A stretch of DNA of 64,000 bases from Saprospiraceae bacterium (GTDB lineage: Bacteria; Bacteroidota; Bacteroidia; Chitinophagales; Saprospiraceae). Both the position numbers and the translations under genes were made by a program. Below, one piece after another: positions 3,404 through 64,000 of this stretch. The DNA lies in the NCBI GenBank assembly GCA_024103195.1, contig JAGFIW010000081.1:8572-72571 (forward strand). The letters are read 5' to 3'. Every line of letters starts with the position of its first letter. The first letter of the stretch is position 1. Below the pieces are notes generated by a model, which did not search any database, was not told the DNA's origin, and saw nothing but the letters and a program-made list of their open reading frames with translations.

Positions 3404-4956
<1,553 letters not shown>

Positions 4957-14897: not shown

Positions 14898-14917
14898 GGC
14901 ATTGGAGGGCAAGAGGG

Positions 14918-16585: not shown

Positions 16586-16757
16586 GGCCAAGAGTTGAGG
16601 AAATAAGAAAAGGAGGTGGTTGAACAGGTATAGGCCTCAAAAGGCGAATAAAAATACTTCTTTCAACCGGATGGTGCAAAGGTTGCTTTTCGGGTTGCCC
16701 GGCCCCGAAAAAATACACCTTGACGGCAATTGCTAATTTTACCGCACAAGTCTCTGC

Positions 16758-48353: not shown

Positions 48354-48361
48354 TATTTTTG
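48354..48361 (+). promoter_or_regulatory. -7 box TATTTTTG upstream of the heptahaem-TPR gene
   Basis: Exact TAnnTTTG match, 4 nt before ATG 48366. Confidence 0.35.
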
Positions 48362-48365
48362 CGCT

Positions 48366-50177
48366 ATGTCCAGGTGGTCGTTGGCAGGGGTATTGTTGGC
48401 CGGTGTTTGGCTGGCCGGATCATTGATGGATTGCACACCTGTCGCCGGAGGGGGTCAAACGGATTTTCTCAACATGCACGACAGTGTGGCTTATGTGGGC
48501 ATGGCCACTTGCCGGACCTGTCACGCAAATGTGCATGAAACCTTCCGGCATACCGGGATGGGCAGATCTTTCGGGCGCGCCACACCGGAGCGCAGCAGCG
48601 CCGTTTTTGGCGATCATGCGCTGGTCAGGGATTCATTGACAGGATACAGCTATTTCCCTTTTTTTAGGGATAGTGTCTTGTACATTCGCGAATTCAGACT
48701 ACAAGGCAAAGACACGGTCCACAACCGCGTGGAAAGAGTGTCATGGATCATCGGTTCCGGGCATCACACCAACTCGCACATCATCGAGCGGAACGGTTTC
48801 CTTTACCAGGCACCGATCACTTATTACACCCAAAGCCGGAGATGGGATATGGCCCCCGGGTATGAAGGAGGCGCCAACAGCAGGTTTTCCAGGATACTGA
48901 CCACGGAATGCCTGACGTGCCACAACCATTTTCCCGGTCATGTGGCCGGATCGGAAAACAAATACTTCGACATACCGGAAGGCATCGAATGCGAGCGATG
49001 CCATGGCCCGGGCGCCTTGCATGTCAAAGCGATACAGTCCGGCAACATAGTGGATACTTCCCGGATGGCCGACCGAACGATCGTCAATCCCCGACGATTG
49101 CCCCGGGACCGGCAAACCGATCTTTGCCAGCGCTGTCATTTGCAGGGGGTGGCGGTGCTTCGCCGGGGCAAAACCTTTTTTGATTTCCGGCCCGGCATGG
49201 CCCTTTCCGAAGTCATGCATGTTTTTCTGCCCCGATACAGCGATTCGGGGGAGCGATTCCTCATGGCTTCCCAGGCAGAGCGTCTCGTGCAAAGTGCGTG
49301 TTACCGCCTATCCGAATCACTGACCTGTATCACCTGCCATAACCCACATGTTTCGGTCTTGCAGACCGGAAGGGAACAATACAATACGACTTGCAGGAAT
49401 TGTCACGGTGCCCTGAAATGTTCGGCGCCGGAGGCGGACAGAAAGGCGCGCAAGGAGGATTGTGCAGGCTGTCACATGCCCGCTTCGGAGAGCATTGACA
49501 TCCCCCACGTCAGTATTACCGATCATTATATCCGCAAGGATTACCGGCCTGTATCCGGCGATGGGGGGAAAAGCCGGTTTTTGGGGTTGGAGCCCTTGAC
49601 CAGGGGCATGGTCGGGCCGGAGGAAATGGCGCAGGCGTATATCGCGCTTTACGAGAAATTCATTCCGGACCGGTCCCTGCTCGACTCGGCCGGACAATGG
49701 CTCGACCGGGCCCGGGGAAAGGAGACGGTGATTTTTCCGGTGCGGGTTCACTGGCTGTTTGCCCGGGAGGATTACGGTGCATTGGGCCGGCTGGCCGATC
49801 AATGCGATACGTCCGGGCTGGACGGGTGGACCGCCTATCGATTGGGAGAGGCCTGCATGCGGACGATGCGCCACAAGCAGGGATTGGCGTTTCTCGCCCG
49901 AGCGGCGCACATGGCCCCTTACCATCTGGAATTCCTCGAGAAATACGGGGTGGCGCTGGGTGTCCTTCAAAAAGGTGTGGAGGCCGAGAGGGTCTTCCGC
50001 CGGGTGTTGGTAGAGGATCCGGCCCGCCCGTTGGCGCTTACCAATCTGGGATACCTCCGTGCCGTGCAGGGAGATGTCGGGCAAGCCCGGCTTTACTACC
50101 GCAAGGCACTGGAACTGGACCCCGACTTCGAGCAGGCCCGGGTAAACCTGGAGGCACTGGAGGGCCTCCGGCGATGA
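48366..50177 (+). CDS. heptahaem c-type cytochrome fused to a C-terminal TPR domain
   Basis: Seven CXXCH: CRTCH, CLTCH, CERCH, CQRCH, CITCH, CRNCH, CAGCH. TPR-like helices in the last ~170 aa (...NLGYLRAVQGDVGQARLYYRKALELDPDFEQA). Signal/anchor MSRWSLAGVLLAGVWLAGSLMDC from ATG 48366; the track start 48285 is a TTG. Confidence 0.8.
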   Translation: MSRWSLAGVLLAGVWLAGSLMDCTPVAGGGQTDFLNMHDSVAYVGMATCRTCHANVHETFRHTGMGRSFGRATPERSSAVFGDHALVRDSLTGYSYFPFFRDSVLYIREFRLQGKDTVHNRVERVSWIIGSGHHTNSHIIERNGFLYQAPITYYTQSRRWDMAPGYEGGANSRFSRILTTECLTCHNHFPGHVAGSENKYFDIPEGIECERCHGPGALHVKAIQSGNIVDTSRMADRTIVNPRRLPRDRQTDLCQRCHLQGVAVLRRGKTFFDFRPGMALSEVMHVFLPRYSDSGERFLMASQAERLVQSACYRLSESLTCITCHNPHVSVLQTGREQYNTTCRNCHGALKCSAPEADRKARKEDCAGCHMPASESIDIPHVSITDHYIRKDYRPVSGDGGKSRFLGLEPLTRGMVGPEEMAQAYIALYEKFIPDRSLLDSAGQWLDRARGKETVIFPVRVHWLFAREDYGALGRLADQCDTSGLDGWTAYRLGEACMRTMRHKQGLAFLARAAHMAPYHLEFLEKYGVALGVLQKGVEAERVFRRVLVEDPARPLALTNLGYLRAVQGDVGQARLYYRKALELDPDFEQARVNLEALEGLRR

Positions 50178-50236
50178 CGGTCGTCATTCCGCGGCTGATT
50201 CTGGTCATCCTGAAGGTATCGTTCCTTTCATCCGGC

Positions 50237-50244
50237 TAACTTTG
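50237..50244 (+). promoter_or_regulatory. -7 box TAACTTTG upstream of the six-gene cytochrome operon
   Basis: Exact TAnnTTTG match, 18 nt before ATG 50263, inside the only sizeable gap (86 nt) in the island. Confidence 0.4.
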
Positions 50245-50262
50245 CCCTTCCAAGGTTGAAGG

Positions 50263-51129
50263 ATGAGTCCCATTGTTCACCGTGTTTATATTTCGACGTT
50301 AGTCACCATTGTCGCAAGTACTGCCTGTTTTCTGGCCTATAGCGGCTACTCGTACTATACGACCCCACTTGAGGAACGGTTTTTTCATCCCCGGCACGAT
50401 TGGTTCAAGCCTTCGGGAGCATTTGGACACGGGCTGGGCATTGTCGGCACTTTGCTTATTCTTTTGGGCGTATTCGGGTATATGGGTATCAAACGCACCC
50501 GTTTGTTGTCGAAAATGGGACGTTTGAAATATTGGCTGGAATTTCATATTTTCCTTTGTACGCTTGGTCCCGTCATGGTCCTTTTTCACACCGCTTTCAA
50601 GTTTGGCGGTATCGTCTCGGTCAGTTTCTGGAGTATGGTCGCTGTGGTGGCGAGTGGTGTGATCGGAAGGTTCATTTACGTGCAAATTCCCCGGTCCCTG
50701 GAAGGCCGTGAATTTTCCTTGCAGGAGCTTCATGCCATGCGGAAGGAATTGACGGAATCTCTGCGAACCGATTACGGATTGGATGAAGAAACGGTGCGTT
50801 TCATAGAGGACATTTCCGAGCAGCCCGTGAACGGAGGTGGAAATCTGATGGTACAATTTGTCCGGAGATGGATGGCTGACCGACGCGCGATCAGGGGCGT
50901 CGTTACCCGGTTGCGTGCCAAAGGAACGGATGGTAAGATCGTAAAAGCCATTCGGCGCAATTTCCGTAAAGAGCTCACCTTGAGGAGTCGAATCAACAGA
51001 TTGCAACACATGATCCGGCTGTTCAAGTACTGGCATGTTGCCCACCTTCCCTTTGCATTGATCATGCTCATTATCATGATCATTCATGTAGGTGTCACCC
51101 TTGCTTTTGGTTATCGCTGGATATTTTGA
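50263..51129 (+). CDS. five-TM membrane protein with two H-x13-H helices (candidate dihaem cytochrome b)
   Basis: TM3 is EFH-IFLCTLGPVMVLF-HTAF and TM5 is VAH-LPFALIMLIIMII-HVG. R/K-rich ~115-aa loop between TM4 and TM5. The coding call is solid; the haem-b function is inferred. Confidence 0.65.
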   Translation: MSPIVHRVYISTLVTIVASTACFLAYSGYSYYTTPLEERFFHPRHDWFKPSGAFGHGLGIVGTLLILLGVFGYMGIKRTRLLSKMGRLKYWLEFHIFLCTLGPVMVLFHTAFKFGGIVSVSFWSMVAVVASGVIGRFIYVQIPRSLEGREFSLQELHAMRKELTESLRTDYGLDEETVRFIEDISEQPVNGGGNLMVQFVRRWMADRRAIRGVVTRLRAKGTDGKIVKAIRRNFRKELTLRSRINRLQHMIRLFKYWHVAHLPFALIMLIIMIIHVGVTLAFGYRWIF

Positions 51130-51131
51130 CC

Positions 51132-52460
51132 ATGAACCAGGAAGAATTTTTGATTTATGCGATTGTCCTGGGATTTTGCTTCCTGGTCATTTGGCTTTAT
51201 TTGCGTCACACCCGACGCAGGTCGCAGGAGACCGAAGTGAAAATTGAACAAGCCAAGTTGGAAGGACTTCATGAACCGGTCTCTCTCCATCCGGTGATTG
51301 ACCTCAATACCTGTATTGGCAGTGCGGCATGTGTGGCCGCTTGTCCGGAGCAGGATATATTGGGATTGCTCAAGGGCAAAGCCCACCTGGTACATGCCTC
51401 CAATTGTGTTGGTCATGGTGCCTGTTTTCACAGTTGTCCCGTAGAGGCGATTTCTCTGGTTATCGGCACTGAAAAACGCGGTGTGGATTTGCCACATGTC
51501 AACCAGGATTACGAGACCAATGTCCAGGGTATTTTCATTGCCGGTGAGTTGGGGGGAATGGGATTGATCAAAAACAGTGTTGAACAGGGACAATCGGCGG
51601 TGGAAAGTATGGTTCGAAACGGATTTCCAGCGGGAGACAAAGAGTACGATCTTATTGTCGTGGGAGCCGGTCCGGCCGGCATTTCGGCCACTTTGACGGC
51701 GCGCAAACACAAATTGCGGTGTCTCACTTTGGAGCAGGATTCTTTGGGAGGTACCGTATTCACTTTTCCAAGGTCAAAAATTGTCATGACGGCTCCCATG
51801 GATCTACCCCTTCATGGCAAGGTGAAATTGTACGACACAAGCAAGCAGGAATTGCTGGAATTATGGCAAGCCGTTCTGCACAAAAACGGCATTTCCATCC
51901 GGGAACATGCCAAAGTGGAGGACATTACCATGGTCGCCGGGGGATTTGAAGTAAGGACATTGCAGGGTGACTGTTTTACCACCAAGAAGGTGTTGTTGGC
52001 CATCGGTCGAAGAGGGAGTCCCAGGAAGTTGGGCATACCGGGCGAGGATACCGAAAAAGTGGCCTACCGATTGCTCGAACCGGAAAACATTCATGACAAA
52101 AATGTGCTGGTGGTTGGGGGGGGAGATTCGGCCATTGAAGCGGCTTTGCTTTTGGCAGAAAACAATGCGGTGACCCTTTCATACCGGAAAGACACCTTCA
52201 GTCGTCTGAAACCCAAAAATCGGGACAAGATCCTGGAGGCGCAGCAACAAGGGGTTGTAGATGTCCAGTTGATGACCAATCCTCTGCGTATCGAAAAACA
52301 CGAAGTGATTCTGAACAAGGAGCCGGAAAATGCGGAGTTTCGGATACCCAATGACCTGGTTTACATTTTCGCCGGAGGGGAGTTGCCCACCCAATTTTTG
52401 GAAAAAACAGGAATACGTATCACCAAGCGATTTGGTTATACAGTACGGAGTTTCTCATGA
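51132..52460 (+). CDS. membrane-anchored 2x[4Fe-4S] ferredoxin-domain / FAD-NAD(P)H oxidoreductase
   Basis: N-terminal TM helix then RHTRRRSQE. CIGSAACVAACP and CVGHGACFHSCP cluster motifs. Dinucleotide folds DLIVVGAGPAGISA and VLVVGGGDSAIEAALLLAE about 158 aa apart (thioredoxin-reductase-like). ATG 51132 is 2 nt after the upstream stop. Confidence 0.8.
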   Translation: MNQEEFLIYAIVLGFCFLVIWLYLRHTRRRSQETEVKIEQAKLEGLHEPVSLHPVIDLNTCIGSAACVAACPEQDILGLLKGKAHLVHASNCVGHGACFHSCPVEAISLVIGTEKRGVDLPHVNQDYETNVQGIFIAGELGGMGLIKNSVEQGQSAVESMVRNGFPAGDKEYDLIVVGAGPAGISATLTARKHKLRCLTLEQDSLGGTVFTFPRSKIVMTAPMDLPLHGKVKLYDTSKQELLELWQAVLHKNGISIREHAKVEDITMVAGGFEVRTLQGDCFTTKKVLLAIGRRGSPRKLGIPGEDTEKVAYRLLEPENIHDKNVLVVGGGDSAIEAALLLAENNAVTLSYRKDTFSRLKPKNRDKILEAQQQGVVDVQLMTNPLRIEKHEVILNKEPENAEFRIPNDLVYIFAGGELPTQFLEKTGIRITKRFGYTVRSFS

Positions 52461-54385
52461 GGAATTTCCAAGTAGCGACGCAATCCTTCCATCCGGATAC
52501 ATTTTCCGGGTGTTGGCAAGCCGTCAGGAATGCTGCAACGGGTCTTGTAGGACAGTCCGGTAAAAGGAAATTTCTGACCGGGAAATTCATCTGCCTGTTA
52601 GTCCTTGGTTTCATCCGGACGGGATGGTCGCAATTGTCTCCCGGACCATTGGCGCAGGCCCATGCTCATCTGGAAGGCGTCAGAAATTGCACCCAATGTC
52701 ACGTCCTTGGCGAAAAGGTTTCCAATGACAAATGCCTGGCTTGTCACAAGGAAATCCGCCAGCTGCTCGGACAGCAGAGGGGATATCATGCCAGCCCGGG
52801 TGTAAAGGGCAAGGAGTGTGCATCTTGCCACAGTGACCATCACGGGCGAAATTTTACGCTCATCCGGTTCGAGGAAAAAACCTTTGATCACAAGTTGGCG
52901 GGATACCCGCTTACGGGGGCACATGCCCGTATTGATTGCCGTTCTTGTCACAAGGCCGATTTCATCAAGGATGCCGAACTGAAGAAGGATCGGGATACTT
53001 ACCTGGGCCTTGACAATGCATGTCTTGGTTGTCATGCCGATTACCATCGCCAGACGCTTTCGTCAGATTGTGCGAAATGTCATGGTACCGAAAGCTTTGT
53101 CCCTGCTTCATTATTCAATCATGACCGTACTGAATTTCCCCTCAAGGGGAAGCACCGAACAACTGCCTGTGTTGACTGCCATCCCAAAGAGACGCGTGAC
53201 GGTCAACCCTTTCAAAAGTTTACCGGATTGGCATTCGGAAAATGCACGGATTGTCATTCGGAGGTCCACCAGAGTATCCATGTGAAGGATTGCAGGGATT
53301 GCCACACGGAGCAATCCTTTTCCGCCATTCCTGTGGCTACCACCCGGTTCAATCACAAGGAAACCGGATTCCCGCTTCGCGGCCGGCATCAGAAGCTGGA
53401 ATGTGCCGCTTGTCACGACACCGGCCTGCCCCCGTCCGAAGTGCTCCGTGACAGGAAGGGCATAAAGGCGGATCAATGCGTTGTCTGCCATGAGGATCCA
53501 CACGAAGGTCGTTTTGGATCATCCTGTGCCTCGTGCCATTCGGAATCGTCCTTCCATGACGTGGCCATCTCGCTGGATTTTGATCATGACCAAACGGATT
53601 TTCCCCTTTTGGGGCGGCATCGGGCGGTGGATTGCCGGCTTTGTCATGAGGATGGTTTTACCACTCCTTTGGCCCATGAATCCTGCCATTCATGTCATGA
53701 GGATTACCACAAAGGCGAATTTGAGCGAGAAGGCCAAGGACCGGATTGCCGGGAATGCCATACAGTTGAAGGATTCCAGGGTAGTTTGTTTACCATTGAG
53801 CGACATGCCGGCACCAATTTTCCGCTGGAGGGCGCCCATCAGGCGACCCCTTGTTTTTCCTGCCATATGAAGGAAGAGAGGTGGACATTCAGAAATCTTG
53901 ACGTTCGTTGTGTGGGTTGTCATGAAGACGTCCACAAGGATCAGATTCCTGCCCGGTATTACCCTGGAAAAACTTGTGAATCCTGTCACCGGCCTACTTC
54001 CTGGGGGGACAACCACTTTGACCACAACCAGACCCAATTCCCGCTCCAGGGCGCCCATGGCAGGCAGCCGTGCCGGGAATGCCATGTGCCGGATACTGGA
54101 TTCCCGTATGGGAAGTTCGTATCTTTGGGGCGTGCCTGTGTCACCTGTCACGAGGACGAGCATCGCGGTCAGTTTCTATCGGGTGAAGTCGTCGATTGTG
54201 TCCGTTGCCATGGATATGACTCCTGGAAAATAGCTTTTTTTGACCATGACCGCACCGCGTTCCCCCTGGAAGGTCGACACAAAGAGGTGTCCTGTGATGG
54301 ATGCCATGTCGAGGTGGAAAAGGAGGGCGACCGATTCGTGTGGTACAAAATAGAGCGTTTCGCGTGCGCCGATTGCCACAAATAG
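52457..54385 (+). CDS. 23-haem c-type cytochrome built from c7/c3-like trihaem repeats
   Basis: 23 CXXCH counted in 642 aa. Recurrent linker F-D/N-H-x2-T-x-F-P-L-x-G-x-H occurs seven times. Signal peptide KFICLLVLGFIRTGWSQ. ATGA overlap with the upstream gene. Confidence 0.9.
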   Translation: MRNFQVATQSFHPDTFSGCWQAVRNAATGLVGQSGKRKFLTGKFICLLVLGFIRTGWSQLSPGPLAQAHAHLEGVRNCTQCHVLGEKVSNDKCLACHKEIRQLLGQQRGYHASPGVKGKECASCHSDHHGRNFTLIRFEEKTFDHKLAGYPLTGAHARIDCRSCHKADFIKDAELKKDRDTYLGLDNACLGCHADYHRQTLSSDCAKCHGTESFVPASLFNHDRTEFPLKGKHRTTACVDCHPKETRDGQPFQKFTGLAFGKCTDCHSEVHQSIHVKDCRDCHTEQSFSAIPVATTRFNHKETGFPLRGRHQKLECAACHDTGLPPSEVLRDRKGIKADQCVVCHEDPHEGRFGSSCASCHSESSFHDVAISLDFDHDQTDFPLLGRHRAVDCRLCHEDGFTTPLAHESCHSCHEDYHKGEFEREGQGPDCRECHTVEGFQGSLFTIERHAGTNFPLEGAHQATPCFSCHMKEERWTFRNLDVRCVGCHEDVHKDQIPARYYPGKTCESCHRPTSWGDNHFDHNQTQFPLQGAHGRQPCRECHVPDTGFPYGKFVSLGRACVTCHEDEHRGQFLSGEVVDCVRCHGYDSWKIAFFDHDRTAFPLEGRHKEVSCDGCHVEVEKEGDRFVWYKIERFACADCHK

Positions 54386-57300: not shown

Positions 57301-58944
57301 CATCATGCCGGAATACCGGGGTATTCATACAGCAGTCCTTCCTGTCTGGCCTGCCATCCGACGGGCAGTGCCGACGACCCTTTTGACCACAGCCAAACCA
57401 ATTTTCCGCTAACAGGTGCCCACGTATCCGTTTCCTGCATCGAATGCCATGCAGGAGGCTACCAGGGAACACCCATGAATTGTGATGCCTGCCATCTCGG
57501 AGATTTCAACCAGGCCAGCAATCCCAATCACCTGACCCTGGGCCTTTCGACCGATTGTATGACTTGTCACACCACCGATCCAGGCTGGAGTCCGGCTTCA
57601 TTTCCTGTTCACAATGATTTTTGGGTCATCGACGGGGCTCATATCCCCGTAGCGAACGAATGTGCACTGTGCCATAACGGGGATTACAACAATACCCCCA
57701 ATACCTGTTCGGGATGTCATTTGCCGGATTACAATCAATCCGTCAATCCGGACCATGGTGCATTGGGATTTCCTACCGATTGTGCCACCTGTCATACGAC
57801 AGATCCGGGTTGGAGTCCTGCAGAATTTCCCCAGCATAATGATTATTGGGTCATTGATGGGGCCCATGTTCCCATTGCCCAGGACTGCGCCGCATGTCAT
57901 AATGGTGACTATCAAAACACACCCAATACCTGTGCGGGTTGTCACCAGGAAGACTACAACCAGAGTCTGAATCCCAACCACATCTCTTTGGGGTTGCCCA
58001 TGGATTGTGCCCAATGTCACACCACGGCACCCGACTGGATGCCGGCCACCTTCCCCTTGCATGATGCCTATTGGCCGATTACAGGGGCGCATACCGCCAT
58101 TGCCAATGACTGTGCAGCATGCCACGGGGGTGATTACAACAACACACCCAACACTTGTTATGGGTGTCATACCGAGGATTACAATCAAACGTCAAATCCG
58201 GACCATCAGGCGGCACAATTCCCCACCGATTGCACCCAATGTCACAATCAGGATGCCTGGACACCTGCCACTCTTGATCACAACCTGTTTTGGCCTTTGA
58301 CGGGGGCTCATGCGGCCATTGCCAACGATTGCAATGCCTGTCACAATGGCAATTACAACAATACCCCCAATGCTTGTTCCGCATGTCATACCGATGATTA
58401 CAACCAGAGTGCAAATCCAAGTCATGCTTCGTTGGGCTTGCCAATGGATTGTGCGATGTGCCATACCACGGATCCGGATTGGATGCCGGCCACTTTCCCC
58501 ATTCATGATGATTTCTGGCCTTTGACGGGGGCTCATGCGGCCATTGCCAATGAGTGTTCGACCTGTCACAACGGCAATTACAACAATACGCCCAATACGT
58601 GCTACGGTTGTCACATGGCCGATTACAATGGGACCAACAATCCGGACCATGCTGCGGCAGGATTTCCGACGACTTGCGAAAATTGCCATACTACCTCGGC
58701 CTGGACTCCTTCCAATTGGGATCATGACAGCCAATATTTCCCCATTTACAGCGGGAAGCATGATGGAGAATGGAATCAATGTACGGACTGCCACACCGTG
58801 CCGGGCAATTACGCGATTTTCAGTTGTATCGATTGTCACCAGCATGACGACCCTGCTGAAGTTGGTGATGACCATCAGGGGGTACCGGGATATTCCTACA
58901 ATAGCCAGGCCTGTTATGATTGTCACCCGACGGGTGAAGATTAA
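54364..58944 (+). CDS. 61-haem modular giant c-type cytochrome
   Basis: 61 CXXCH counted by hand. A GTG 54364 start gives a canonical signal peptide (M)RRLPQIAFCLALVTSLGAQS with 22-nt overlap of the upstream gene. The alternative ATG 54301 would overlap by 85 nt. Ends CYDCHPTGED. Confidence 0.9.
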   Translation: MRRLPQIAFCLALVTSLGAQSPHGPAFALQCADCHTTDGWKTMRKDMVFDHATTNFQLEGRHRTVDCRACHSTLVFGEAETDCVSCHTDVHQQTVGQDCARCHHTENWLVDDISGIHQDNGFPLVGAHAAAQCFDCHVSESDLRFDRLGNDCISCHREDYQGTTNPNHQEAGFSLQCADCHDPVRFGWESGPVEHDFFPLTKGHDIADCGQCHTGGDFTQTPTDCAACHQADFDATSQPSHTMAGFPTDCRMCHTTDPGWMPAEFRDHDGLYFPVYSGAHEGTWSSCTECHQNQGDFGEFTCLTCHQPQETDDEHQGIGGYIYQSQACLACHPTGNADDIFDHNATAFPLTGAHVDVDCAACHGGGFQGTPTECAACHMPAFDQTNNPDHGDLGFPADCAACHTTAPDWTPAGMPDHDAYYALNGAHALIRDDCSSCHHGDYNNTPNTCWGCHQNDFQNTLDPDHEALNFSTDCITCHTESAWSPTAFDHDGQFFPIYSGQHEGEWMSCTDCHNNPSQYADFTCLTCHLNPETDDQHQGILGYVYASTACLACHPTGSADDVFDHNQTGFSLTGAHLTTDCLECHAGGFSGTPTACNACHSEDFNQAGNPNHVALGLPMDCASCHSTEPGWSPAQFPDHDNYYALVGAHAMIAMDCAACHNGDYQNTPNTCAGCHQKDYDQTNDPNHASLQFSTDCASCHNESAWEPSSFDHDGQYFPINSGAHAGEWTTCTDCHMNPGDWADFTCLTCHLNPETEDQHQGVQGFVYVSTACLACHPTGSADDIFDHDQTGFALTGAHQQADCLDCHAGGFAGTPTACSACHLEDFNQAVNPNHMTLGLPMDCASCHSTEPGWSPAQFPDHDSYYPLLGAHAMIAMDCAACHNGDYQNTPNTCAGCHLEDFQQTTDPDHEAAQFNTDCASCHSENAWSPAQFDHDGQYFPIYSGKHEGEWSQCTDCHTDPGNYATFSCTGCHVNPETDDHHAGIPGYSYSSPSCLACHPTGSADDPFDHSQTNFPLTGAHVSVSCIECHAGGYQGTPMNCDACHLGDFNQASNPNHLTLGLSTDCMTCHTTDPGWSPASFPVHNDFWVIDGAHIPVANECALCHNGDYNNTPNTCSGCHLPDYNQSVNPDHGALGFPTDCATCHTTDPGWSPAEFPQHNDYWVIDGAHVPIAQDCAACHNGDYQNTPNTCAGCHQEDYNQSLNPNHISLGLPMDCAQCHTTAPDWMPATFPLHDAYWPITGAHTAIANDCAACHGGDYNNTPNTCYGCHTEDYNQTSNPDHQAAQFPTDCTQCHNQDAWTPATLDHNLFWPLTGAHAAIANDCNACHNGNYNNTPNACSACHTDDYNQSANPSHASLGLPMDCAMCHTTDPDWMPATFPIHDDFWPLTGAHAAIANECSTCHNGNYNNTPNTCYGCHMADYNGTNNPDHAAAGFPTTCENCHTTSAWTPSNWDHDSQYFPIYSGKHDGEWNQCTDCHTVPGNYAIFSCIDCHQHDDPAEVGDDHQGVPGYSYNSQACYDCHPTGED
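54889..57552 (+). repeat. four tandem 666-bp (222-codon, nine-haem) units inside the 61-haem gene
   Basis: Equivalent positions fall at 54889, 55555, 56221, 56887 and 57553, in exact 666-bp register. Units 3 and 4 are about 90% identical over their first ~170 nt by manual alignment. Confidence 0.85.
57553..58671 (+). repeat. five tandem trihaem units (225/225/225/219/225 bp) inside the 61-haem gene
   Basis: GAT-TGx (Asp-Cys) unit starts at 57553, 57778, 58003, 58228 and 58447. Consensus DCxxCHTTDPxWxPAxFPxHDxxWxxxGAHxxIAxxCxxCHNGxYxNTPNTCxGCHxxDYNQxxNPxHxxxGxP. Confidence 0.85.
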
Positions 58945-58947
58945 TTG

Positions 58948-60585
58948 ATGCCGGTCATGCGATGGAAACTCATAGTGTTGATTCAACTCACGGTAATTGC
59001 AGTGAGTGCGCAGGAACCGGCATCATTCCTGGAAGGGTCAGTATCCTTTTTAACGGCTCAAAATGTTTATGTCAAATTTGACAACACGAGTGCCATTGAG
59101 ATAGGGGACACGCTTTATCTGAAACGCCCGGATTCATGGGAGCCCCTCCTGACGGTTTCCCAAAAATCCTCGATTTCCTGCGTGTGTATTCCGTTGGGGC
59201 CCATGCCCGTGAAAGGGACTTTGGTGTTTGCCATCACCTGGAAGGATGCCCAATCGGAGAAAGTCGTGCCATTGCCGGAACAGCAGCCTGTTGCCCCCCC
59301 ACTTCCTCCTGATGCTCCACTACAAATACCTGAAGATTCAGAAGAGGCTCCTCCTTCAGACAATTCAGAAAAGACAGCGACGAGACAACGAATTATGGGA
59401 AGATTCTCTGCGGCTTCTTACAGTACATTGACGAAGGGATCGAACCAGCATAGAATGCGTTATTCTCTGAACTGGAAAGGGGAAAATCTTGGCGGAAGCC
59501 CTTTTTCTGTGGAGGGCTATCTGACATTTCGCCACACGGCAGGTGAGTGGGAGGAGGTTCGCGAAAATCTGTTTGATGTATTCAAAATCATTTCGCTGGC
59601 GGTCCGATATGATCCGACAGTGCGGACATCCATTTCTGTGGGTCGCCGGATAAATGCCCGTATTTCAAGTATGGGTGCCATAGACGGTATTCAGGTTGAG
59701 CATGGATGGGGGAAGGTGCGCATTGGTGTCATGGCGGGTTCCCGGCCTGATTTTATGGATTATAGCATCAATCCGGCGTTGCTGCAAGGCGGAGCCTGGA
59801 TCGGATTCGACCTGGGATCCTCCTGGGCGAGATTTCAAAATACTGCTGCCATTGTAGAACAACGAAATGGTCCGCGGACCGATCGGCGGTTCCTGTATTT
59901 CCAACACTCGGGCACCTGGTTTACCCATCTTCATCTCTTCTTGTCTTCCGAAGTGGATTTATACAGGAAAGTGGGTCAGGAAGTCGGTTCCACTTTGTCA
60001 TTTACCAATTTGTTTGCCTCCCTGCGTTATCGGTTCTCCAGACAGTTGAGTGCGTCTGTTTCCTATGACAATCGGAAGAATGTCATTTTCTTTGAATCCT
60101 ACAAGAATTTTATTGACCAGTTGATTGAACAGGAATCAAGACAAGGCCTCAGATTTCAGATGCAATACAAGCCATGGCGACTTGTTTCGATAGGTGCCAA
60201 TGCGAGTTGGAGGTTTCAAGCCAGTGGGGCCAATCCTTCCCGCAATTTGAATGGTTATGTGACCGTGGCCCGGATTCCCTGGATTTCCGGCAGCATGACC
60301 GTTTCCGGCAATATGCTCAACACCGGTTATTTGCAGAGCAACATGTACAGTGTACGTTACATGAGGGAAATCGTACGTGGCCATGTAAGTGCAGATGCCT
60401 ATTACCGGTGGATCGATTACACCTATCCTTCGGATTTCCGACTCCATAATGATCTGGCCGGTATCAATGTCACCTGCAGGCTGACTCGCTTGCTGGCAAT
60501 TCATTTGTATTACGAAGCCACCTTCGGAAGTGAAAATACGAACATTTCACGTTTGAATGCCAAAATTACGCATCGGCTCCAGTGA
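58948..60585 (+). CDS. predicted outer-membrane beta-barrel protein (candidate porin partner of the cytochromes)
   Basis: Signal peptide MRWKLIVLIQLTVIAVSAQ. Roughly 90-aa N-terminal domain, then Pro-rich linker PLPEQQPVAPPLPPDAPLQIPEDSEEAPP. About 20 short amphipathic alternating segments follow (RMRYSLNWK, FSVEGYLTFRH, LSASVSYDNR, GLRFQMQYKP, VSIGANASWRFQ, LAIHLYYEATFG...). TTG 58945 directly follows the upstream stop; the ATG is at 58948. Confidence 0.6.
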   Translation: MPVMRWKLIVLIQLTVIAVSAQEPASFLEGSVSFLTAQNVYVKFDNTSAIEIGDTLYLKRPDSWEPLLTVSQKSSISCVCIPLGPMPVKGTLVFAITWKDAQSEKVVPLPEQQPVAPPLPPDAPLQIPEDSEEAPPSDNSEKTATRQRIMGRFSAASYSTLTKGSNQHRMRYSLNWKGENLGGSPFSVEGYLTFRHTAGEWEEVRENLFDVFKIISLAVRYDPTVRTSISVGRRINARISSMGAIDGIQVEHGWGKVRIGVMAGSRPDFMDYSINPALLQGGAWIGFDLGSSWARFQNTAAIVEQRNGPRTDRRFLYFQHSGTWFTHLHLFLSSEVDLYRKVGQEVGSTLSFTNLFASLRYRFSRQLSASVSYDNRKNVIFFESYKNFIDQLIEQESRQGLRFQMQYKPWRLVSIGANASWRFQASGANPSRNLNGYVTVARIPWISGSMTVSGNMLNTGYLQSNMYSVRYMREIVRGHVSADAYYRWIDYTYPSDFRLHNDLAGINVTCRLTRLLAIHLYYEATFGSENTNISRLNAKITHRLQ

Positions 60586-60647
60586 TTATGGCAGGCGATG
60601 TGTCCGTTTACTTATTGAGTCTTTCTACCTTTACCTGAAAATCCAGA

Positions 60648-61385
60648 ATGATGAAATCGCATTTGTTTGTGTTGGGCATTGTTGGCATACTATTGCTCCA
60701 AGGATATGGCTGTGACTCCGGACCTAAAGTGATTGAAAGTGACTCTGAACAGGCTGGAGAGCCTCAAATACGGATGGAGCAAGAAGACCCTATTCGGGAA
60801 GTAATGGTCGAAGAGGTGCTTCATACCGACAAGTATTCCTATCTGAATGTCAAGGAAGGGGACAAGGAGACCTATTGGATTGCGATTCCCAGAAGTGAAG
60901 TTGAAGTGGGTGATGCCCTGAGATACAAGGGAGGATTGATGAAGCAAAATTTTTACAGCCGTGAATATGACCGGACATTTGAAACGTTGTACCTGGTTTC
61001 CGACATCAGAAGAGCCAGCGCTTCGCCAGGTGAGCTTCAGGCAGGAAATAATCCGGAAGATGTCATCAAAGTCGAACCCGGTTCCATTCAGCCTGCAGAA
61101 GGGGCTATCCGCATAGCTGATTTACTGGCTGCACCTTCCAGGTATGCGAATAAAACGGTAAGGGTTACGGGAAAGGTGGTCAAAGTCAATCCCATGATAA
61201 TGAGTCGCAATTGGGTCCATTTGCAGGACGGCAGTGGAAAAGATCTGGATTTGACATTCACGACCACTGATCTTGTGACATTGGGATCAGTGGTGACACT
61301 GGAAGGCAAGGTGGCCCTTGATAAAGACTTCGGAGCCGGTTACAGGTATGATGTCATCGTTGAAGACTGTCGCCTGATTCCCTGA
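60648..61385 (+). CDS. hypothetical lipoprotein with OB-fold-like C-terminal half
   Basis: MMKSHLFVLGIVGILLLQGYGC lipobox. C-terminal KTVRVTGKVVKVNPMIMSRNWVHLQDGSG...VTLEGKV resembles periplasmic BOF/YgiW-type OB folds (weak, by eye). Confidence 0.5.
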   Translation: MMKSHLFVLGIVGILLLQGYGCDSGPKVIESDSEQAGEPQIRMEQEDPIREVMVEEVLHTDKYSYLNVKEGDKETYWIAIPRSEVEVGDALRYKGGLMKQNFYSREYDRTFETLYLVSDIRRASASPGELQAGNNPEDVIKVEPGSIQPAEGAIRIADLLAAPSRYANKTVRVTGKVVKVNPMIMSRNWVHLQDGSGKDLDLTFTTTDLVTLGSVVTLEGKVALDKDFGAGYRYDVIVEDCRLIP

Positions 61386-61600
61386 TTCCAAATTATGCAG
61401 CGTCCCCATTGTTCCATTCCTGAGCGATTGCTGCGCAAGCCGTTCAATTCAGGCTCTGTCTGTATGCCTTCCCGACCAGATAGACGAGCGTGACGATGTG
61501 CACCCATGTTTTCCTGGTAGAAATGCATGCCCACTCAAATTGTGGGAAAGGTTAAAGCGACTTTCCAAACCCCGTATTGAAGCGGGTTAAGAAATCCTCG

Positions 61601-61638
61601 GGATTCGGATACTGATGTAAGCACCTTCGTCCGAATCC
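61601..61638. terminator. 9-bp inverted repeat in the convergent gap between the lipoprotein gene and ccsBA
   Basis: GGATTCGGA (61601-61609) and TCCGAATCC (61630-61638) with a 20-nt loop and no T run. Confidence 0.25.
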
Positions 61639-61680
61639 ATAGATAAATCCTGGATATTTCGTGTCCGAAGTGTGTTTAAG

Positions 61681-64000
61681 TCACGCCAATTTTTCATTTT
61701 TTCTGTGTTTCCACCATGCGAGCAAGCTGATGACAACCAGAGAAAATACGGTATAATAAGCAAAATCGGGAATCGGTACAGGATCACCTGCGGCATAGGA
61801 ATGGAGTCCGGACAGATAATAGTTGACGCCGAAATAGGTCATGACAACGGAAGCCCACCCGAAAAGTGACGCGACGTTGAAGGCGTACAAACCGCGGAAA
61901 CGGGGGATAAACCGCATGTGCAAAATGAAACTGTATACGAGAATGGTGACAAGCGCCCAGGTTTCTTTGGCATCCCAACCCCAATAACGTCCCCATGGTT
62001 CATTGGCCCATATACCTCCGAGATAAGTACCGGTACTTATCATGAACAACCCTCCGATCAGAGTCATTTCACTGATGTAGGACATTTCCTTCACCATACG
62101 ATAAATGCGTTGACGGTTGGAAGGACCGGCAAGAGCCATGAGTACGAGATTGATGACCCCAATAATGGCCCCCAGCATGAGGAAGCCATAACTGCCAGCT
62201 TCCAGCGAAACATGTATCGTCAGCCAATATGATTTCAATACGGGAACCAGTGGGGTGATTTCCGGATCCAGCCAGCTCAGACCGGCCACCATCATGATGG
62301 TAGCTGCCAGCGCAGAGGTTGCCGTCAAGGCGCCGGCTGCACGTCGTGAAAACAGTAATCCGGCCAATACCGTGGTCCATCCGATATAAATCATGGACTC
62401 ATAACCATTGCTCCAGGGTGCTCTTTGACTTACGTACCAACGAATGGCCAATCCAAAGGTGTGCAAGGTAAAAGCCAGTAAAAGAATTCCCCATGTAATT
62501 TTTATTATTTTTTCGAGAGGTTTGTCTGGTTGGAAGACCGACAAAAAGAGCAAGATCAGGAAAGCAAGCGTCAAAAGGCCGTATATGGTGCGAAGGCGGT
62601 TGAAAATGTCCAGTCGGTTGAGGAGCAATTCTGCAGAAATCCGGCTTGTAGCAGGATAAATGGATGATCCGTATTCCCGTTGGTAATTCCCGAGATCTTG
62701 CAGGAGGCGATCCGGCTTTTCCCATTGATCATTTTTGCGGGACGTACGCAAAGCGTCAAGGTAGGCCGGATAGAATTGATCAATGAATGGCACTCCGGAG
62801 GCGCCATGACGGGTTGCATCGGCGGGAGAACGCCAGTGATTGGTGGTATCACCCGGAACGGGAAAAATACGAAACAAATTTCCCGAAAAAACCATGCTGC
62901 AAATGTTCACTTTTTCATCCACCTTGATCAATTCCTTGTCCAGGACGCCGCGGTCACGAGATTCCTTGTTGTAAGCCGTTCGGACGGCATCGGACAGTTT
63001 GTACGCGCCGTCGGTGTGAAAAAAGTCGGCATAGGAGGCATTGGGTGCATCCACGCCCAGCATTTTACGGATCTCCGGGTGCTTCCCCAAGCGGATCAAC
63101 GGGGCATGGTACCATTCTGATGGCTGAAGGGCCATTCCGAGAATCACTTGTTCGGCCGACAGATTTTCATAGGTTTCTTTGCGCGACAATTTGCGCATGA
63201 CCTCCCTCGAAAGGGTATTGATCGGCTTGAGTCTTCCATTAAAGTCCTGTACGACATTTTTTCCGAAGTTATCCGCGTGTCTCCTGGACACAGGAACGGG
63301 TTCTCCTTGTTGGGCGGCCAGGAAACCGTTAAACGCGCACGCCAATACAAGGGTGGCCACACCGGCTTTTGAACCCGAGCGAATTCTTTTCAGGAGGACC
63401 GCCAATTGCCGGAACCGACTGGATGGCGTAAAGAGGGTTATGATCATGCCCAATGTGAGAAGAAAATATCCGATATATGACAACCATGTACCCGGTGCGT
63501 CATGATTGACGCTGAGATAAGTGCCCCCTTCATCCTGGTCATAAGATGATTGAAAGAATCGGTAACCTTCATAATCCAGGATATGGTTCATATAAATCCG
63601 CTGTTCACGCTCCAATCCCGTACGGGGATCCTTTAGGGTGACTTCACTGGCATAGGAGGAAGGATTCTGTGTACCCGGATAGCGTTCAAGAATGAAATCA
63701 CGCAAGTACAGCGAAAAAGGAAGGAATCGTTTTTTAGCGCCATAGGAGGCCTGGACGCGCACACCCGGCAATTCGAATGTGCGTGGCCGACCTTCTACGC
63801 CGGGTGCTCCATAGATATAGTGCTTTACCGTACGACCTCCAGAGGATATGGCCAATTCAACGCCTCCCACGCTTGTACTGGTCATCTTGCGATCTGCCGA
63901 TTCCATTTCTACGCGACCTTTTTCCATGAAGTCGGCAAAGACAAAACTGGCTGCGTTGTTTTGATACAGACTGCGTAGGGCCAAAGGATGGTCCATATCC
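61681..64000 (-). CDS. ccsA: system II cytochrome c biogenesis protein, fused ResB/CcsB-CcsA (CcsBA), 5'-partial
   Basis: C-terminal CcsA WWD motif WANEPWGRYWGWDAKETWALV with flanking conserved His (TLHTFGLAIRW, FILHMRF). ResB-like N-terminal part. The frame stays open to the window edge, so Met 63996 is probably internal. Confidence 0.85.
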   Translation of the reverse strand, partial: DMDHPLALRSLYQNNAASFVFADFMEKGRVEMESADRKMTSTSVGGVELAISSGGRTVKHYIYGAPGVEGRPRTFELPGVRVQASYGAKKRFLPFSLYLRDFILERYPGTQNPSSYASEVTLKDPRTGLEREQRIYMNHILDYEGYRFFQSSYDQDEGGTYLSVNHDAPGTWLSYIGYFLLTLGMIITLFTPSSRFRQLAVLLKRIRSGSKAGVATLVLACAFNGFLAAQQGEPVPVSRRHADNFGKNVVQDFNGRLKPINTLSREVMRKLSRKETYENLSAEQVILGMALQPSEWYHAPLIRLGKHPEIRKMLGVDAPNASYADFFHTDGAYKLSDAVRTAYNKESRDRGVLDKELIKVDEKVNICSMVFSGNLFRIFPVPGDTTNHWRSPADATRHGASGVPFIDQFYPAYLDALRTSRKNDQWEKPDRLLQDLGNYQREYGSSIYPATSRISAELLLNRLDIFNRLRTIYGLLTLAFLILLFLSVFQPDKPLEKIIKITWGILLLAFTLHTFGLAIRWYVSQRAPWSNGYESMIYIGWTTVLAGLLFSRRAAGALTATSALAATIMMVAGLSWLDPEITPLVPVLKSYWLTIHVSLEAGSYGFLMLGAIIGVINLVLMALAGPSNRQRIYRMVKEMSYISEMTLIGGLFMISTGTYLGGIWANEPWGRYWGWDAKETWALVTILVYSFILHMRFIPRFRGLYAFNVASLFGWASVVMTYFGVNYYLSGLHSYAAGDPVPIPDFAYYTVFSLVVISLLAWWKHRKNEKLA

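Follow-up and report, generated by a model that had tools for sequence, protein, structure and literature searches.

How do electrons enter a gene cluster whose products carry 91 CXXCH haem-attachment sites, and where do they leave it? This question is raised by a 64,000-nt stretch of a contig from a Saprospiraceae bacterium (JAGFIW010000081.1; the whole stretch is called the window below), of which positions 48366-64000 were analysed here. This part holds seven plus-strand genes (g1 to g7) and a convergent ccsBA gene (g8), an arrangement described in a first-pass annotation and borne out by the coordinates. The annotation read the gene order as a complete wire that could not be mapped onto a described system; its core does in fact match PCC3, a type of porin-cytochrome conduit predicted by He et al. 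(PMC5566968). We propose that g2 to g7 form a PCC3-type porin-cytochrome conduit that electrons enter through a two-component, NOX-like device, not a classical quinol dehydrogenase, and we give this proposal an even chance of being right.

Results

Two of the haem-rich genes belong to a conserved module

CXXCH motifs were counted in the translations and in all six reading frames. The translations of three plus-strand genes, g1, g4, and g5, contain 7, 23, and 61 sites, respectively, and the recount gave the total of 91 that had been reported. In six frames, 94 sites were found in 48366-64000, 91 of them in the frames of these three genes, versus 5 in the first 48.4 kb of the window, a contrast that excludes a chance origin of the island. 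CXXCK, CX3CH, and CX4CH sites were absent from the translations of the genes in 48366-64000, in agreement with the earlier statement that there is no CXXCK catalytic-haem signature.

The junctions between g2 and g7 are as close as first described: a 2-nt gap, an ATGA overlap, a 22-nt overlap, a 0-3 nt gap, and a 62-nt gap. At the g2/g3 junction, a g3 start at ATG 51132 leaves the 2-nt gap and a TTG start at 51126 gives a 4-nt overlap. The ATG of g4 at 52457, within the ATGA overlap, is the sole start codon upstream of the g4 hydrophobic segment.

Species-representative genomes were scanned with g2, and at least 596 matching stretches (about 600) were confirmed. The exact g2 sequence of the window was not on record, and a 99% identical relative (contig L005) and a 97% identical GTDB representative stood in for it; the latter, from an uncultured Saprospiraceae metagenome-assembled genome (MAG), is the closest public relative among the matches listed. 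Locus statistics refer to the best 80 of these at least 596 stretches, which are species representatives, all from the Fibrobacterota-Chlorobiota-Bacteroidota (FCB) group. The frequencies of the downstream genes g6, g7, and ccsBA were scored in the 46 loci with at least 9.5 kb of downstream sequence.

In every locus with room for it (76 of 76), g3 directly follows g2, and a cytochrome with at least 13 haems lies no more than 6.5 kb away in 60 of 63 loci. Synteny of g6 with the cytochromes was found in 34 of 46 loci, and in most of the others its place is filled by a longer g5; g7 follows g6 in 16 of the 46, and ccsBA is linked in 11. The hosts of the 80 loci are Saprospiraceae, Lewinellaceae, Flavobacteriales, Bacteroidales, Prolixibacteraceae, Cyclobacteriaceae, and one "Chlorobiota" MAG. 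The gene set is kept at GC contents from 34.5% to 72.8%. A homology search with a distant g2 member led to Gemmatimonadota and Rhodothermota (Rubricoccaceae), not to Proteobacteria. This census across 80 loci upholds the reading of 50263-61385 as one operon: g2 to g7 behave as a single conserved module, and the predicted six-gene operon is real and widely conserved.

Two distant loci extend this result. In L091 (73% GC), the order is g2, a tetratricopeptide repeat (TPR) protein, a 17-haem cytochrome, a 25-haem cytochrome, the barrel, and g3; g3 is kept despite its moved position, and its linkage therefore survives rearrangement. The locus of a flagellated organism, L090, has the canonical gene order. 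The same contig carries, at 1-391, a CbcL-like fusion of a multihaem cytochrome with Ni_hydr_CYTB, and thus a quinol-type entry protein and the g2-g3 module can coexist in one genome.

A complete module is also present on plasmid pEMTOL02 (NC_018749.1, 78197-90781) of Emticicia oligotrophica DSM 17448, a cultured aerobic oligotroph, as well as in Yeosuana marina JLT21, and the plasmid location in Emticicia suggests horizontal mobility. On pEMTOL02 (L093, 8899-21483), ccsA lies directly upstream of g2 and is followed by g3, a 23-haem cytochrome, a 40-haem cytochrome, the barrel, and a GW-domain lipoprotein, for which the RefSeq names are "hypothetical," "NAD(P)-binding domain-containing," and "cytochrome c3 family." Genes for an extracytoplasmic function (ECF) sigma factor, a Rieske protein, a DUF5777 barrel, a YceI protein, and a c-type cytochrome are found just upstream of this module.

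Several other loci differ in their gene content. In Lewinellaceae and Saprospiraceae MAGs (L001/L009, 12356-17726; L010; L028), g2 and g3 precede a 292-aa open reading frame (ORF) without a Pfam match, a 23-haem cytochrome, and a 328-aa ORF; on the opposite strand lies another g3 paralogue (62% identity), and neither a giant cytochrome nor a g6 barrel is in view. In L046 and L058 (Candidatus Opimibacter skivensis), L082, L036, and L030, the second cytochrome reaches 87 haems in one ORF of ∼2,200 aa, and the CXXCH totals downstream of g2 reach 108-112. The giant cytochrome is split into many ORFs in several long-read MAGs, probably through frameshift errors. Loci L022, L070, and L078 have no multihaem cytochrome within 7.5-10 kb and have unrelated neighbours (peptidase M3, MacB/FtsX); a fragmented ccsBA lies upstream in L070, and a divergent regulator of the Crp/Fnr type (cNMP_binding) lies beside g2 in L078.

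g2 is predicted to be a di-haem inner-membrane protein

The first gene of the module, g2 (50263-51129, plus strand), encodes a 288-aa inner-membrane protein with five hydrophobic segments. The two helices with H-x13-H spacing that had been pointed out earlier were located as W91-x3-H95-x13-H109 on transmembrane (TM) helix 3 and W257-x3-H261-x13-H275 on TM5, and TM4 carries S131-G-x-x-G135. In an alignment of 23 sequences with identities down to 28%, H95, H109, H261, H275, S131, G132, G135, and W257 are invariant. A cytoplasmic insert of ∼110 aa, helical and rich in K and R, lies between TM4 and TM5, and the loop at residues 77-89 contains 6 K+R residues. By the positive-inside rule, H95 and H261 would lie near the cytoplasm and H109 and H275 near the periplasm, an arrangement predicted to hold two stacked b-type haems, one near each face of the membrane.

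Families were assigned by the curated cutoffs of Pfam and NCBIfam, and Foldseek was run on AlphaFold2 (AF2) models of g2 and g6. Members of the g2 family gave weak Pfam matches to DUF4405 (16 of 23), Ferric_reduct (7 of 23; best E value, 5.5e-4), and Ni_hydr_CYTB (3 of 23). The window g2 has five TM helices versus the six of the ferric-reductase domain, with the His pairs on TM3 and TM5 present. A search of the g2 profile against the PDB returned only chance coiled-coil matches to the cytoplasmic insert, and these were not used for a fold claim. Relatives of g2 are numerous (more than 7,500 at 90% clustering; 3,175 clusters at 50%).

g3 is a membrane-anchored flavoprotein with non-canonical cluster ligands

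The partner of g2, g3 (51126, or alternatively ATG 51132, to 52460, plus strand), encodes a membrane-anchored cytoplasmic FeS-flavoprotein, as judged from Pfam matches (Pyr_redox_3, 8.6e-39; Fer4_10, 1.9e-10) and the alignment. It consists of an N-terminal TM helix (residues 8-26), the sequence RHTRRR, a ferredoxin-like domain, and an FAD and NAD(P)H domain. The helix has two invariant tyrosines, Y11 and Y25, with positive residues behind it, and carries neither a Tat nor a Sec signal. Conservation of the helix itself suggests that it packs against g2 and does not merely serve as an anchor.

The first-pass annotation had assigned two [4Fe-4S] clusters to g3. This assignment did not hold, as the eight-Cys double motif is absent and the second Cys is replaced by S/T in one motif and by His in the other. 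The window protein has C63-x2-S-x2-C69-x3-C73-P and C94-x2-H97-x2-C100-x3-C104-P, and all 79 homologues aligned have C-x2-S/T-x2-C-x3-CP and C-x2-H-x2-C-x3-CP, with H97 invariant; the non-canonical motifs are present also in the 73% GC locus L091. Only six Cys residues are conserved among the 79 homologues, all of them in the ferredoxin domain, and g3 is therefore neither a disulfide reductase nor a canonical 2×[4Fe-4S] protein. From these ligands, g3 likely holds a [3Fe-4S]-like cluster and a His-ligated cluster.

GxGxxG, GGGDSA, and YRK-x5-R are conserved in the 79 homologues, and the YRK...R motif resembles the NADPH-specific HRR...R of thioredoxin reductase (TrxR). Among solved structures, YpdA/Bdr (7a76, 7a7b) and a TrxR-like ferredoxin-NADP reductase (3ab1) come closest. 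The flavoprotein domain has neither the redox-active CxxC of TrxR nor a Cys of the YpdA Cys14 type, and scores against TIGR04018 (150 bits; cutoff, 340) and TIGR01292 (72 bits; cutoff, 343) were below the cutoffs. By these features, g3 is a predicted member of the YpdA/TrxR fold family that does not share the function of those enzymes. A g3 match on a Pseudoalteromonas megaplasmid covered the flavoprotein domain only, in a glycosyltransferase context, and was set aside as unrelated.

Gammaproteobacterial relatives of g2 have a different flavoprotein partner

Inner-membrane proteins (IMPs) homologous to g2 are encoded on plasmids of Alteromonas, Methylophaga, and Legionella (hhalign probability, 99.6%; E value, 2e-24). 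There the IMP gene stands between genes for a 7-haem cytochrome and a membrane-anchored protein with FAD_binding_6, NAD_binding_1, and [2Fe-2S] domains, which is unrelated to g3. The 7-haem cytochromes share the N-terminal haem module of g4 (triad alignment, E value of 5e-12). Two unrelated NAD(P)H flavo-FeS proteins have thus become partners of g2-type IMPs, so that recruitment occurred at least twice, and the use of two different partners points to the pyridine-nucleotide pool as what the IMP is coupled to on the cytoplasmic side. The first-pass suggestion of a pyridine-nucleotide-type flavoprotein as the input is strengthened both by the g3 linkage and by this independent partner.

The triads were seen in Methylophaga pinxianii (L094, 8013-11367), Alteromonas macleodii (L095, 7908-11391), and Legionella pneumophila (L096, 5950-9421). 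The product of the first gene has a signal peptide and a Met/His-rich periplasmic domain in addition to a TM helix and the FAD_binding_6, NAD_binding_1, and [2Fe-2S] domains, and the second gene encodes a 252-aa IMP. The triads lie either beside a [NiFe]-hydrogenase cluster or within islands for resistance to copper and heavy metals (P-type ATPase, DUF2933, ICMT, DUF411, multicopper oxidase), and the Met-rich periplasmic domain hints at a copper-related role.

Two large cytochromes, a barrel, and a haem lyase could complete the path

The 642-aa product of g4 (52457-54385, plus strand) is a c-type cytochrome with 23 haem sites, 27.9 aa per haem, and 54 His residues. Its homologues have 20 haems (22 cases) or 23 haems (38 cases) and share the N-terminal motif QLSPGxLxxAHAxLEGxxNCTxCH, which is found also in L088, L089, L090, and L091 and is likely the docking end for g2. 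The protein is predicted to span the periplasm.

The next gene, g5 (54364-58944, plus strand), encodes a 1526-aa cytochrome with 61 haem sites in c7-like trihaem units (CXXCH spacing, 35-15-25) and 126 His residues; its homologues have 13-87 haems. A 222-aa (9-haem) super-repeat is visible at the protein level only, as no DNA tandem repeat with a period of up to 500 was found in g4 or g5. The His content of g4 and g5 is enough for bis-His ligation throughout, and both contain very little Met, as wire-type cytochromes do. Starting at GTG 54364, g5 has a Sec signal peptide that matches that of Emticicia g5. The protein has no C-terminal sorting domain of the type IX secretion system (T9SS), though other proteins of the window carry one, and the barrel g6 is therefore the only candidate outward route for g5. 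The apparent lack of the 61-haem gene in the 99% identical contig L005 was a gene-calling artefact, as that contig ends inside g5.

The 546-aa outer-membrane protein g6 (58945-60585, plus strand) begins with a signal peptide and a small N-terminal beta domain (26-99), which a disordered linker rich in Pro (100-148) joins to a barrel (149-546). The AF2 model (mean pLDDT, 79.6; barrel blocks, 85-95) supports the barrel fold proposed in the first-pass annotation, with ∼22 strands in place of the ∼20 given there. Foldseek matched it with a probability of 1.0 to ushers, Occ porins, and TonB-dependent receptors at TM-scores of only ∼0.4; no specific family is named by these matches, and the label "MtrB-like" was not adopted. 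No Pfam or NCBIfam match and no MtrB_PioB domain were found in g6, and some of its 1091 homologues are named "outer membrane beta-barrel family protein." Downstream of it, g7 (60648-61385, plus strand) encodes a predicted 245-aa lipoprotein whose signal ends in ...QGYGC; the Pfam GW domain match is weak in the window protein and stronger in the Emticicia orthologue (1.4e-6).

Convergent with the operon, g8 runs on the minus strand from 61681 to beyond 64000. The earlier report of ccsBA stands as to its presence; the gene is incomplete within the window, its N terminus lying beyond 64000. Both Cytochrom_C_asm (PF01578, 125.9 bits) and ResB (PF05140, 48.4 bits) were matched above their cutoffs, and the score against TIGR03144 was 169 bits (cutoff, 187.6) for a protein cut by the window end. 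By its domains, g8 is a fused CcsBA, the system II cytochrome c haem lyase/exporter in which a ResB-like domain is fused to a CcsA domain.

Other features of the window

Upstream of the module, g1 (48366-50177, plus strand) encodes a secreted 7-haem cytochrome c with a C-terminal TPR domain (Pfam TPR_1/TPR_2, Paired_CXXCH_1, and Cytochrome_C554) and has its own box, TATTTTTG, at 48354-48361 (plus strand). It was rejected as a part of the module and is taken as a lineage-specific neighbour, being present only in the near-identical contigs L005-L008.

The promoter box named in the first-pass annotation, TAACTTTG, was located on the plus strand at 50237-50244, 19 nt before the g2 ATG; it is taken as a Bacteroidota-type −7 element by position only, the motif count being at chance level window-wide. 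In the whole window, 20 TAnnTTTG sites were found versus 18 expected from shuffled sequence, i.e., no enrichment. TAnnTTTG boxes lie a few to ∼20 nt ahead of many predicted start codons and were noted at 3423, 12030 (minus strand), 21938 (minus), 21981, 36531 (minus), 36542, 43077 (minus), 48354, and 50237; their closeness to start codons points to short or absent 5′ leaders. Scans of 48-64 kb for sigma-70 promoters and intrinsic terminators gave chance-level results and are uninformative for Bacteroidota.

The remaining window genes include the housekeeping genes for RNase R, IMPDH, IleRS, PBP2, and SecA. The T9SS hallmarks reported earlier were recovered as CHU_C sorting domains in two minus-strand cargo genes: 28616-33823 encodes a 1735-aa protein with SprB repeats, PKD, and CHU_C, and 34016-35755 encodes a 579-aa protein with fn3 and CHU_C. 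These two genes confirm that the host is a T9SS-bearing member of Bacteroidota. A gene for a DUF1501 protein adjoins a large ORF on the same strand (13332-15044 and 14918-16591, both minus), a pair that resembles the DUF1501/DUF1553 pairs common in Planctomycetes and some Bacteroidota.

Discussion

The wire reading of the first-pass annotation is well supported: anatomy, ligands, linkage, and barrel fold are observed, and from these we infer cofactor content, flow direction, acceptor, surface exposure of g5, and physiological role. In the electron path that we propose, cytoplasmic NAD(P)H would reduce the FAD of g3, and electrons would pass through the two non-canonical FeS clusters of g3 to the cytoplasm-side haem b of g2 (H95/H261) and then to its periplasm-side haem b (H109/H275). 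From there they would be handed to the N-terminal haems of the 23-haem g4, which would carry them across the periplasm to the 61-haem g5, held in or threaded through the ∼22-strand barrel g6, and they would exit to an external acceptor (for example, a metal oxide, humic material, a partner cell, or an electrode). g7 would be an accessory lipoprotein, and CcsBA would load the 84 c-type haems of g4 and g5. Within the membrane, the five TM helices of g2 and the single one of g3 may together amount to a six-helix domain of the NOX/FRE type that is divided after TM5.

A module linked to NAD(P)H should run outwards, because inward flow would run uphill against the redox gap and the membrane potential alike. 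Because such export consumes membrane potential, the purpose is probably redox balancing and not energy-conserving respiration, and the likely role is that of an electron vent that regenerates NAD(P)+ in aerobic heterotrophs during anoxia. Other known entries into extracellular electron transfer (EET) at the inner membrane are the quinol dehydrogenases CymA, ImcH, and CbcL and the Gram-positive Ndh2/EetAB route. More tentatively than the proposal for the operon itself, we suggest that the g2-g3 pair is a "split NOX": an outward module that would draw on NAD(P)H without the help of quinones and feed a periplasmic/extracellular haem wire. It would be a third kind of inner-membrane entry into EET, widespread in nominally aerobic Bacteroidota, Gemmatimonadota, and Rhodothermota, with NAD(P)H flavo-FeS partners of the IMP independently recruited in Proteobacteria.

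Several observations weigh against this proposal. The window g2 has no match to Pfam Ferric_reduct (PF01794) at an E value of ≤0.01, its AF2 model is poor (pLDDT, 68; pTM, 0.40), and Foldseek searches of that model against the PDB gave nothing below an E value of 0.6. Di-haem cytochromes b are commonly quinone reactive, and He et al., who likened the PCC3 IMP to a ferric-reductase domain, proposed a quinone-active role for it (PMC5566968). In L089, a cytochrome gene comes straight after g2 and the 4.3 kb of available sequence show no g3, and in 3 of 63 loci (L022, L070, and L078) g2-g3 has no cytochrome nearby. PCC3 itself is called "functionally unverified" in the literature. The surface exposure or outer-membrane export of g5 is something that we infer, and a vent that dissipates membrane potential is an odd investment for a machine of ∼90 haems.

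Part of this evidence favours the strongest alternative, a quinol-fed conduit, which we regard as unlikely. Here g2 would be a menaquinol:cytochrome c oxidoreductase feeding g4, g5, and g6, likened to the cytochrome b of hydrogenases, FdnI, or CbcBA/CbcL, and g3 would be an auxiliary, acting for example as another electron input, as a redox sensor, or in bifurcation/confurcation; the cluster would then serve energy-conserving anaerobic respiration downstream of NDH-1/Nqr. The first-pass annotation saw no quinol dehydrogenase, and the absence of NapC/NirT and NrfD stands; the blanket claim is unsafe, because g2, as a di-haem cytochrome b-type protein, could itself react with quinol. Besides the proposed quinone-active role and L089, quinol feeding is favoured by the weak Ni_hydr_CYTB and DUF4405 matches of the g2 family, domains that are often quinone reactive, and by the description of proteobacterial PCC3 as four genes without a flavoprotein, where the IMP apparently works without g3. 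Against it, g2 has no recognisable quinone-site motif, the linkage to g3 is universal in this lineage and survives changes in gene order, a second, unrelated NAD(P)H flavo-FeS protein accompanies the gammaproteobacterial IMPs, and the conserved TM helix of g3 suggests a stable complex with g2.

Direction is the point at issue in the next alternative, in which the conduit takes up electrons from extracellular Fe(II), minerals, reduced humics, or cathodes and delivers them either to the quinone pool or, through g3, to NAD(P)+. Neutrophilic Fe(II) oxidisers are the organisms in which PCC3 was first found, and inward flow was hypothesised for it there (PMC5566968), porin-cytochrome conduits can be bidirectional (PMC8258643), and the IMP gene of one PCC3 copy was upregulated in iron-oxidising cells of Sideroxydans CL21. 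On the other hand, both PCC3 clusters of Sideroxydans lithotrophicus ES-1 were downregulated on Fe(II), the hosts here are organoheterotrophs (Saprospiraceae, Flavobacteriales, Emticicia), and no Cyc2, cupredoxin, or reverse-electron-transport genes were found in the cluster. Reduction of NAD(P)+ from bis-His c-type haems against the membrane potential would be strongly uphill, which leaves uptake possible only with the quinone pool as the acceptor, and we consider inward flow improbable.

It is likewise improbable, in our judgement, that g4 and g5 are confined to the periplasm, serving there as a capacitor or reducing soluble oxidants or metals, with g6 and g7 unrelated or merely structural. 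A capacitor role has been suggested for giant Saprospiraceae cytochromes (PMC11495043) and for PCC3, g5 lacks a T9SS signal, and the gammaproteobacterial IMP triads, in their copper/metal-resistance and hydrogenase islands, have no porin. He et al. also list porin-less clusters, in which a small cytochrome is accompanied by an IMP that carries H-x13-H twice and by an "other redox protein" that they leave unnamed (PMC5566968). These points are countered by the synteny of g6 in 34 of 46 loci, with a longer g5 in most of the others, and by the length of g5: at ∼0.8-1 nm per haem, as judged from MtrA dimensions, 61 haems would extend to about twice the width of the periplasm. As for iron acquisition, an assimilatory ferric reductase was rejected as the main role, since spending ∼90 iron atoms per copy under iron starvation would be implausible.

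Finally, membership in an already characterised module (Nrf, Hao/Otr, Mcc, ACIII, MtrCAB, or Geobacter Pcc/Ext) is very improbable: only generic, sub-cutoff matches speak for it (DmsE, 40-45 bits against a cutoff of 192, with 45 and 41 bits for the MtrA/DmsE model TIGR03508; OmcA/MtrC TIGR03507, 17 against 209; HmcA, 27 against 400; GSU2203, 44 against 325), none of the eight proteins matched such a module, no curated family reached its cutoff for g2, g4, g5, g6, or g7, and CXXCK, NrfD, NapC/NirT, and MtrB_PioB are all lacking.

Saprospiraceae and their relatives are among the most abundant bacteria of activated sludge and marine particles. They have been regarded as aerobes that lack nitrate respiration and can ferment only to a small extent, and yet they thrive in plants with anoxic stages (PMC9304909). 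An NAD(P)H vent, if true, would explain how Saprospiraceae hosts cope with oxygen loss and would add a large overlooked group to the electroactive microbes in iron, manganese, and humic cycling. It would also mean that a PCC3-type conduit can be wired to the pyridine-nucleotide pool instead of to quinones. The g2-g3 module offers a testable handle on PCC3 function generally, and genetics and biochemistry are feasible now because the module is present in the cultured Emticicia oligotrophica DSM 17448 (on its plasmid) and Yeosuana marina JLT21.

Comparison with known systems

The closest known system is PCC3, which He et al. (2017, Front Microbiol; PMC5566968) predicted as a four-gene cluster in Alpha-, Beta-, and Gammaproteobacteria only, with Slit_0867-0870 and Slit_1446-1449 of S. 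lithotrophicus ES-1 as examples. Its IMP has ∼300 aa, five TM helices, SGxxG on TM4, and W-x3-H-x13-H on TM3 and TM5 (PMC5566968), a signature that g2 (288 aa, five TM helices) matches residue for residue. The "extracellular" PCC3 cytochrome has 10-63 haems (median, 34) and the periplasmic one a median of 21 (PMC5566968), with published periplasmic numbers of 21, 24, and 27 and ∼27 aa per haem. With 23 haems and 27.9 aa per haem, g4 falls within the 21-27 range, and g5, whose location is predicted, has 61 haems and repeats against up to 63. The porin of Leptothrix cholodnii PCC3 has 22 predicted strands and the g6 barrel ∼22, and the gene order from the IMP end is the same. This likeness rests on the published signature and architecture, compared by description. 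The present cluster differs in that it belongs to Bacteroidota, with relatives in Gemmatimonadota and Rhodothermota, always includes g3, and often includes g7 and ccsBA.

In NOX/FRE proteins and in the two-component MsrQ-Fre system, an NAD(P)H flavoprotein donates electrons in the cytoplasm and the electrons leave the cytoplasm. The present cluster would resemble these systems in this layout and in the two predicted bis-His b-type haems stacked on TM3 and TM5 with H-x13-H spacing. In contrast, g2 has one TM helix fewer than their six and contains a large cytoplasmic insert; g3 is a separate, non-homologous protein with a thioredoxin-reductase fold and two FeS clusters; and the acceptor would be a multihaem cytochrome c instead of O2, an Fe(III) chelate, or MsrP.

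The same porin-cytochrome principle, in which an inner-membrane protein feeds a periplasmic cytochrome, a barrel, and an outer cytochrome, is seen in MtrCAB-CymA of Shewanella and in OmaB/OmbB/OmcB and ExtABCD with ImcH/CbcL/CbcBA of Geobacter, whereas the haem numbers here are 2-6 times larger and the known entries of those systems are quinol dehydrogenases. Hmc and Tmc of Desulfovibrio are transmembrane electron links as well, built from a multihaem cytochrome of the periplasm, a cytochrome b of the membrane, and an FeS protein of the cytoplasm. They differ in belonging to unrelated families, with an HdrD-like cytoplasmic subunit, no outer-membrane part, and mainly inward flow. The polymeric c7 cytochromes of Geobacter (GSU1996; TIGR04257, "nanowire_3heme") resemble g5 in their c7-like trihaem chain and capacity for bis-His ligation, and g5 scored 187 bits against Pfam Cytochrome_C7. 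They have 12-27 haems versus 61, however, g5 reached 19.5 bits against TIGR04257 (cutoff, 40), and g5 is linked to a barrel and an IMP.

The ptdABCDEFG genes (bioRxiv 10.1101/2023.11.21.568154) form a porin-cytochrome operon described in 2023-24, for which EET was suggested and which also encodes a membrane protein resembling ferric reductases, an FeS protein, and an FAD/NAD(P) oxidoreductase; the operon probably overlaps "PCC4 subgroup II" of He et al. Compared by description, its cytochromes have 5, 4, and 10 haems versus 23 and 61 here, FAD and FeS are divided between PtdC and PtdE, of which PtdE also has a cNMP domain, and the hosts are marine Proteobacteria, Nitrospirales, and Planctomycetes. 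Within Bacteroidota, giant multihaem cytochromes of uncultured Saprospiraceae were described in a 2024 secretome survey (PMC11495043), and a Bacteroidetes cytochrome-barrel cluster was reported in an anode biofilm. An incomplete search of the literature returned no papers on the g2-g3 pairing in these phyla or on the non-canonical FeS ligands.

Judged by signature and architecture, then, the cluster is a lineage-specific variant of the predicted PCC3 type and not a categorically new system. What is new is (i) its breadth across Bacteroidota, Gemmatimonadota, and Rhodothermota of the FCB group; (ii) the obligate NAD(P)H-type FeS-flavoprotein g3; (iii) the unusual cluster ligands of g3; and (iv) the independent recruitment of a second flavo-FeS partner in Gammaproteobacteria.

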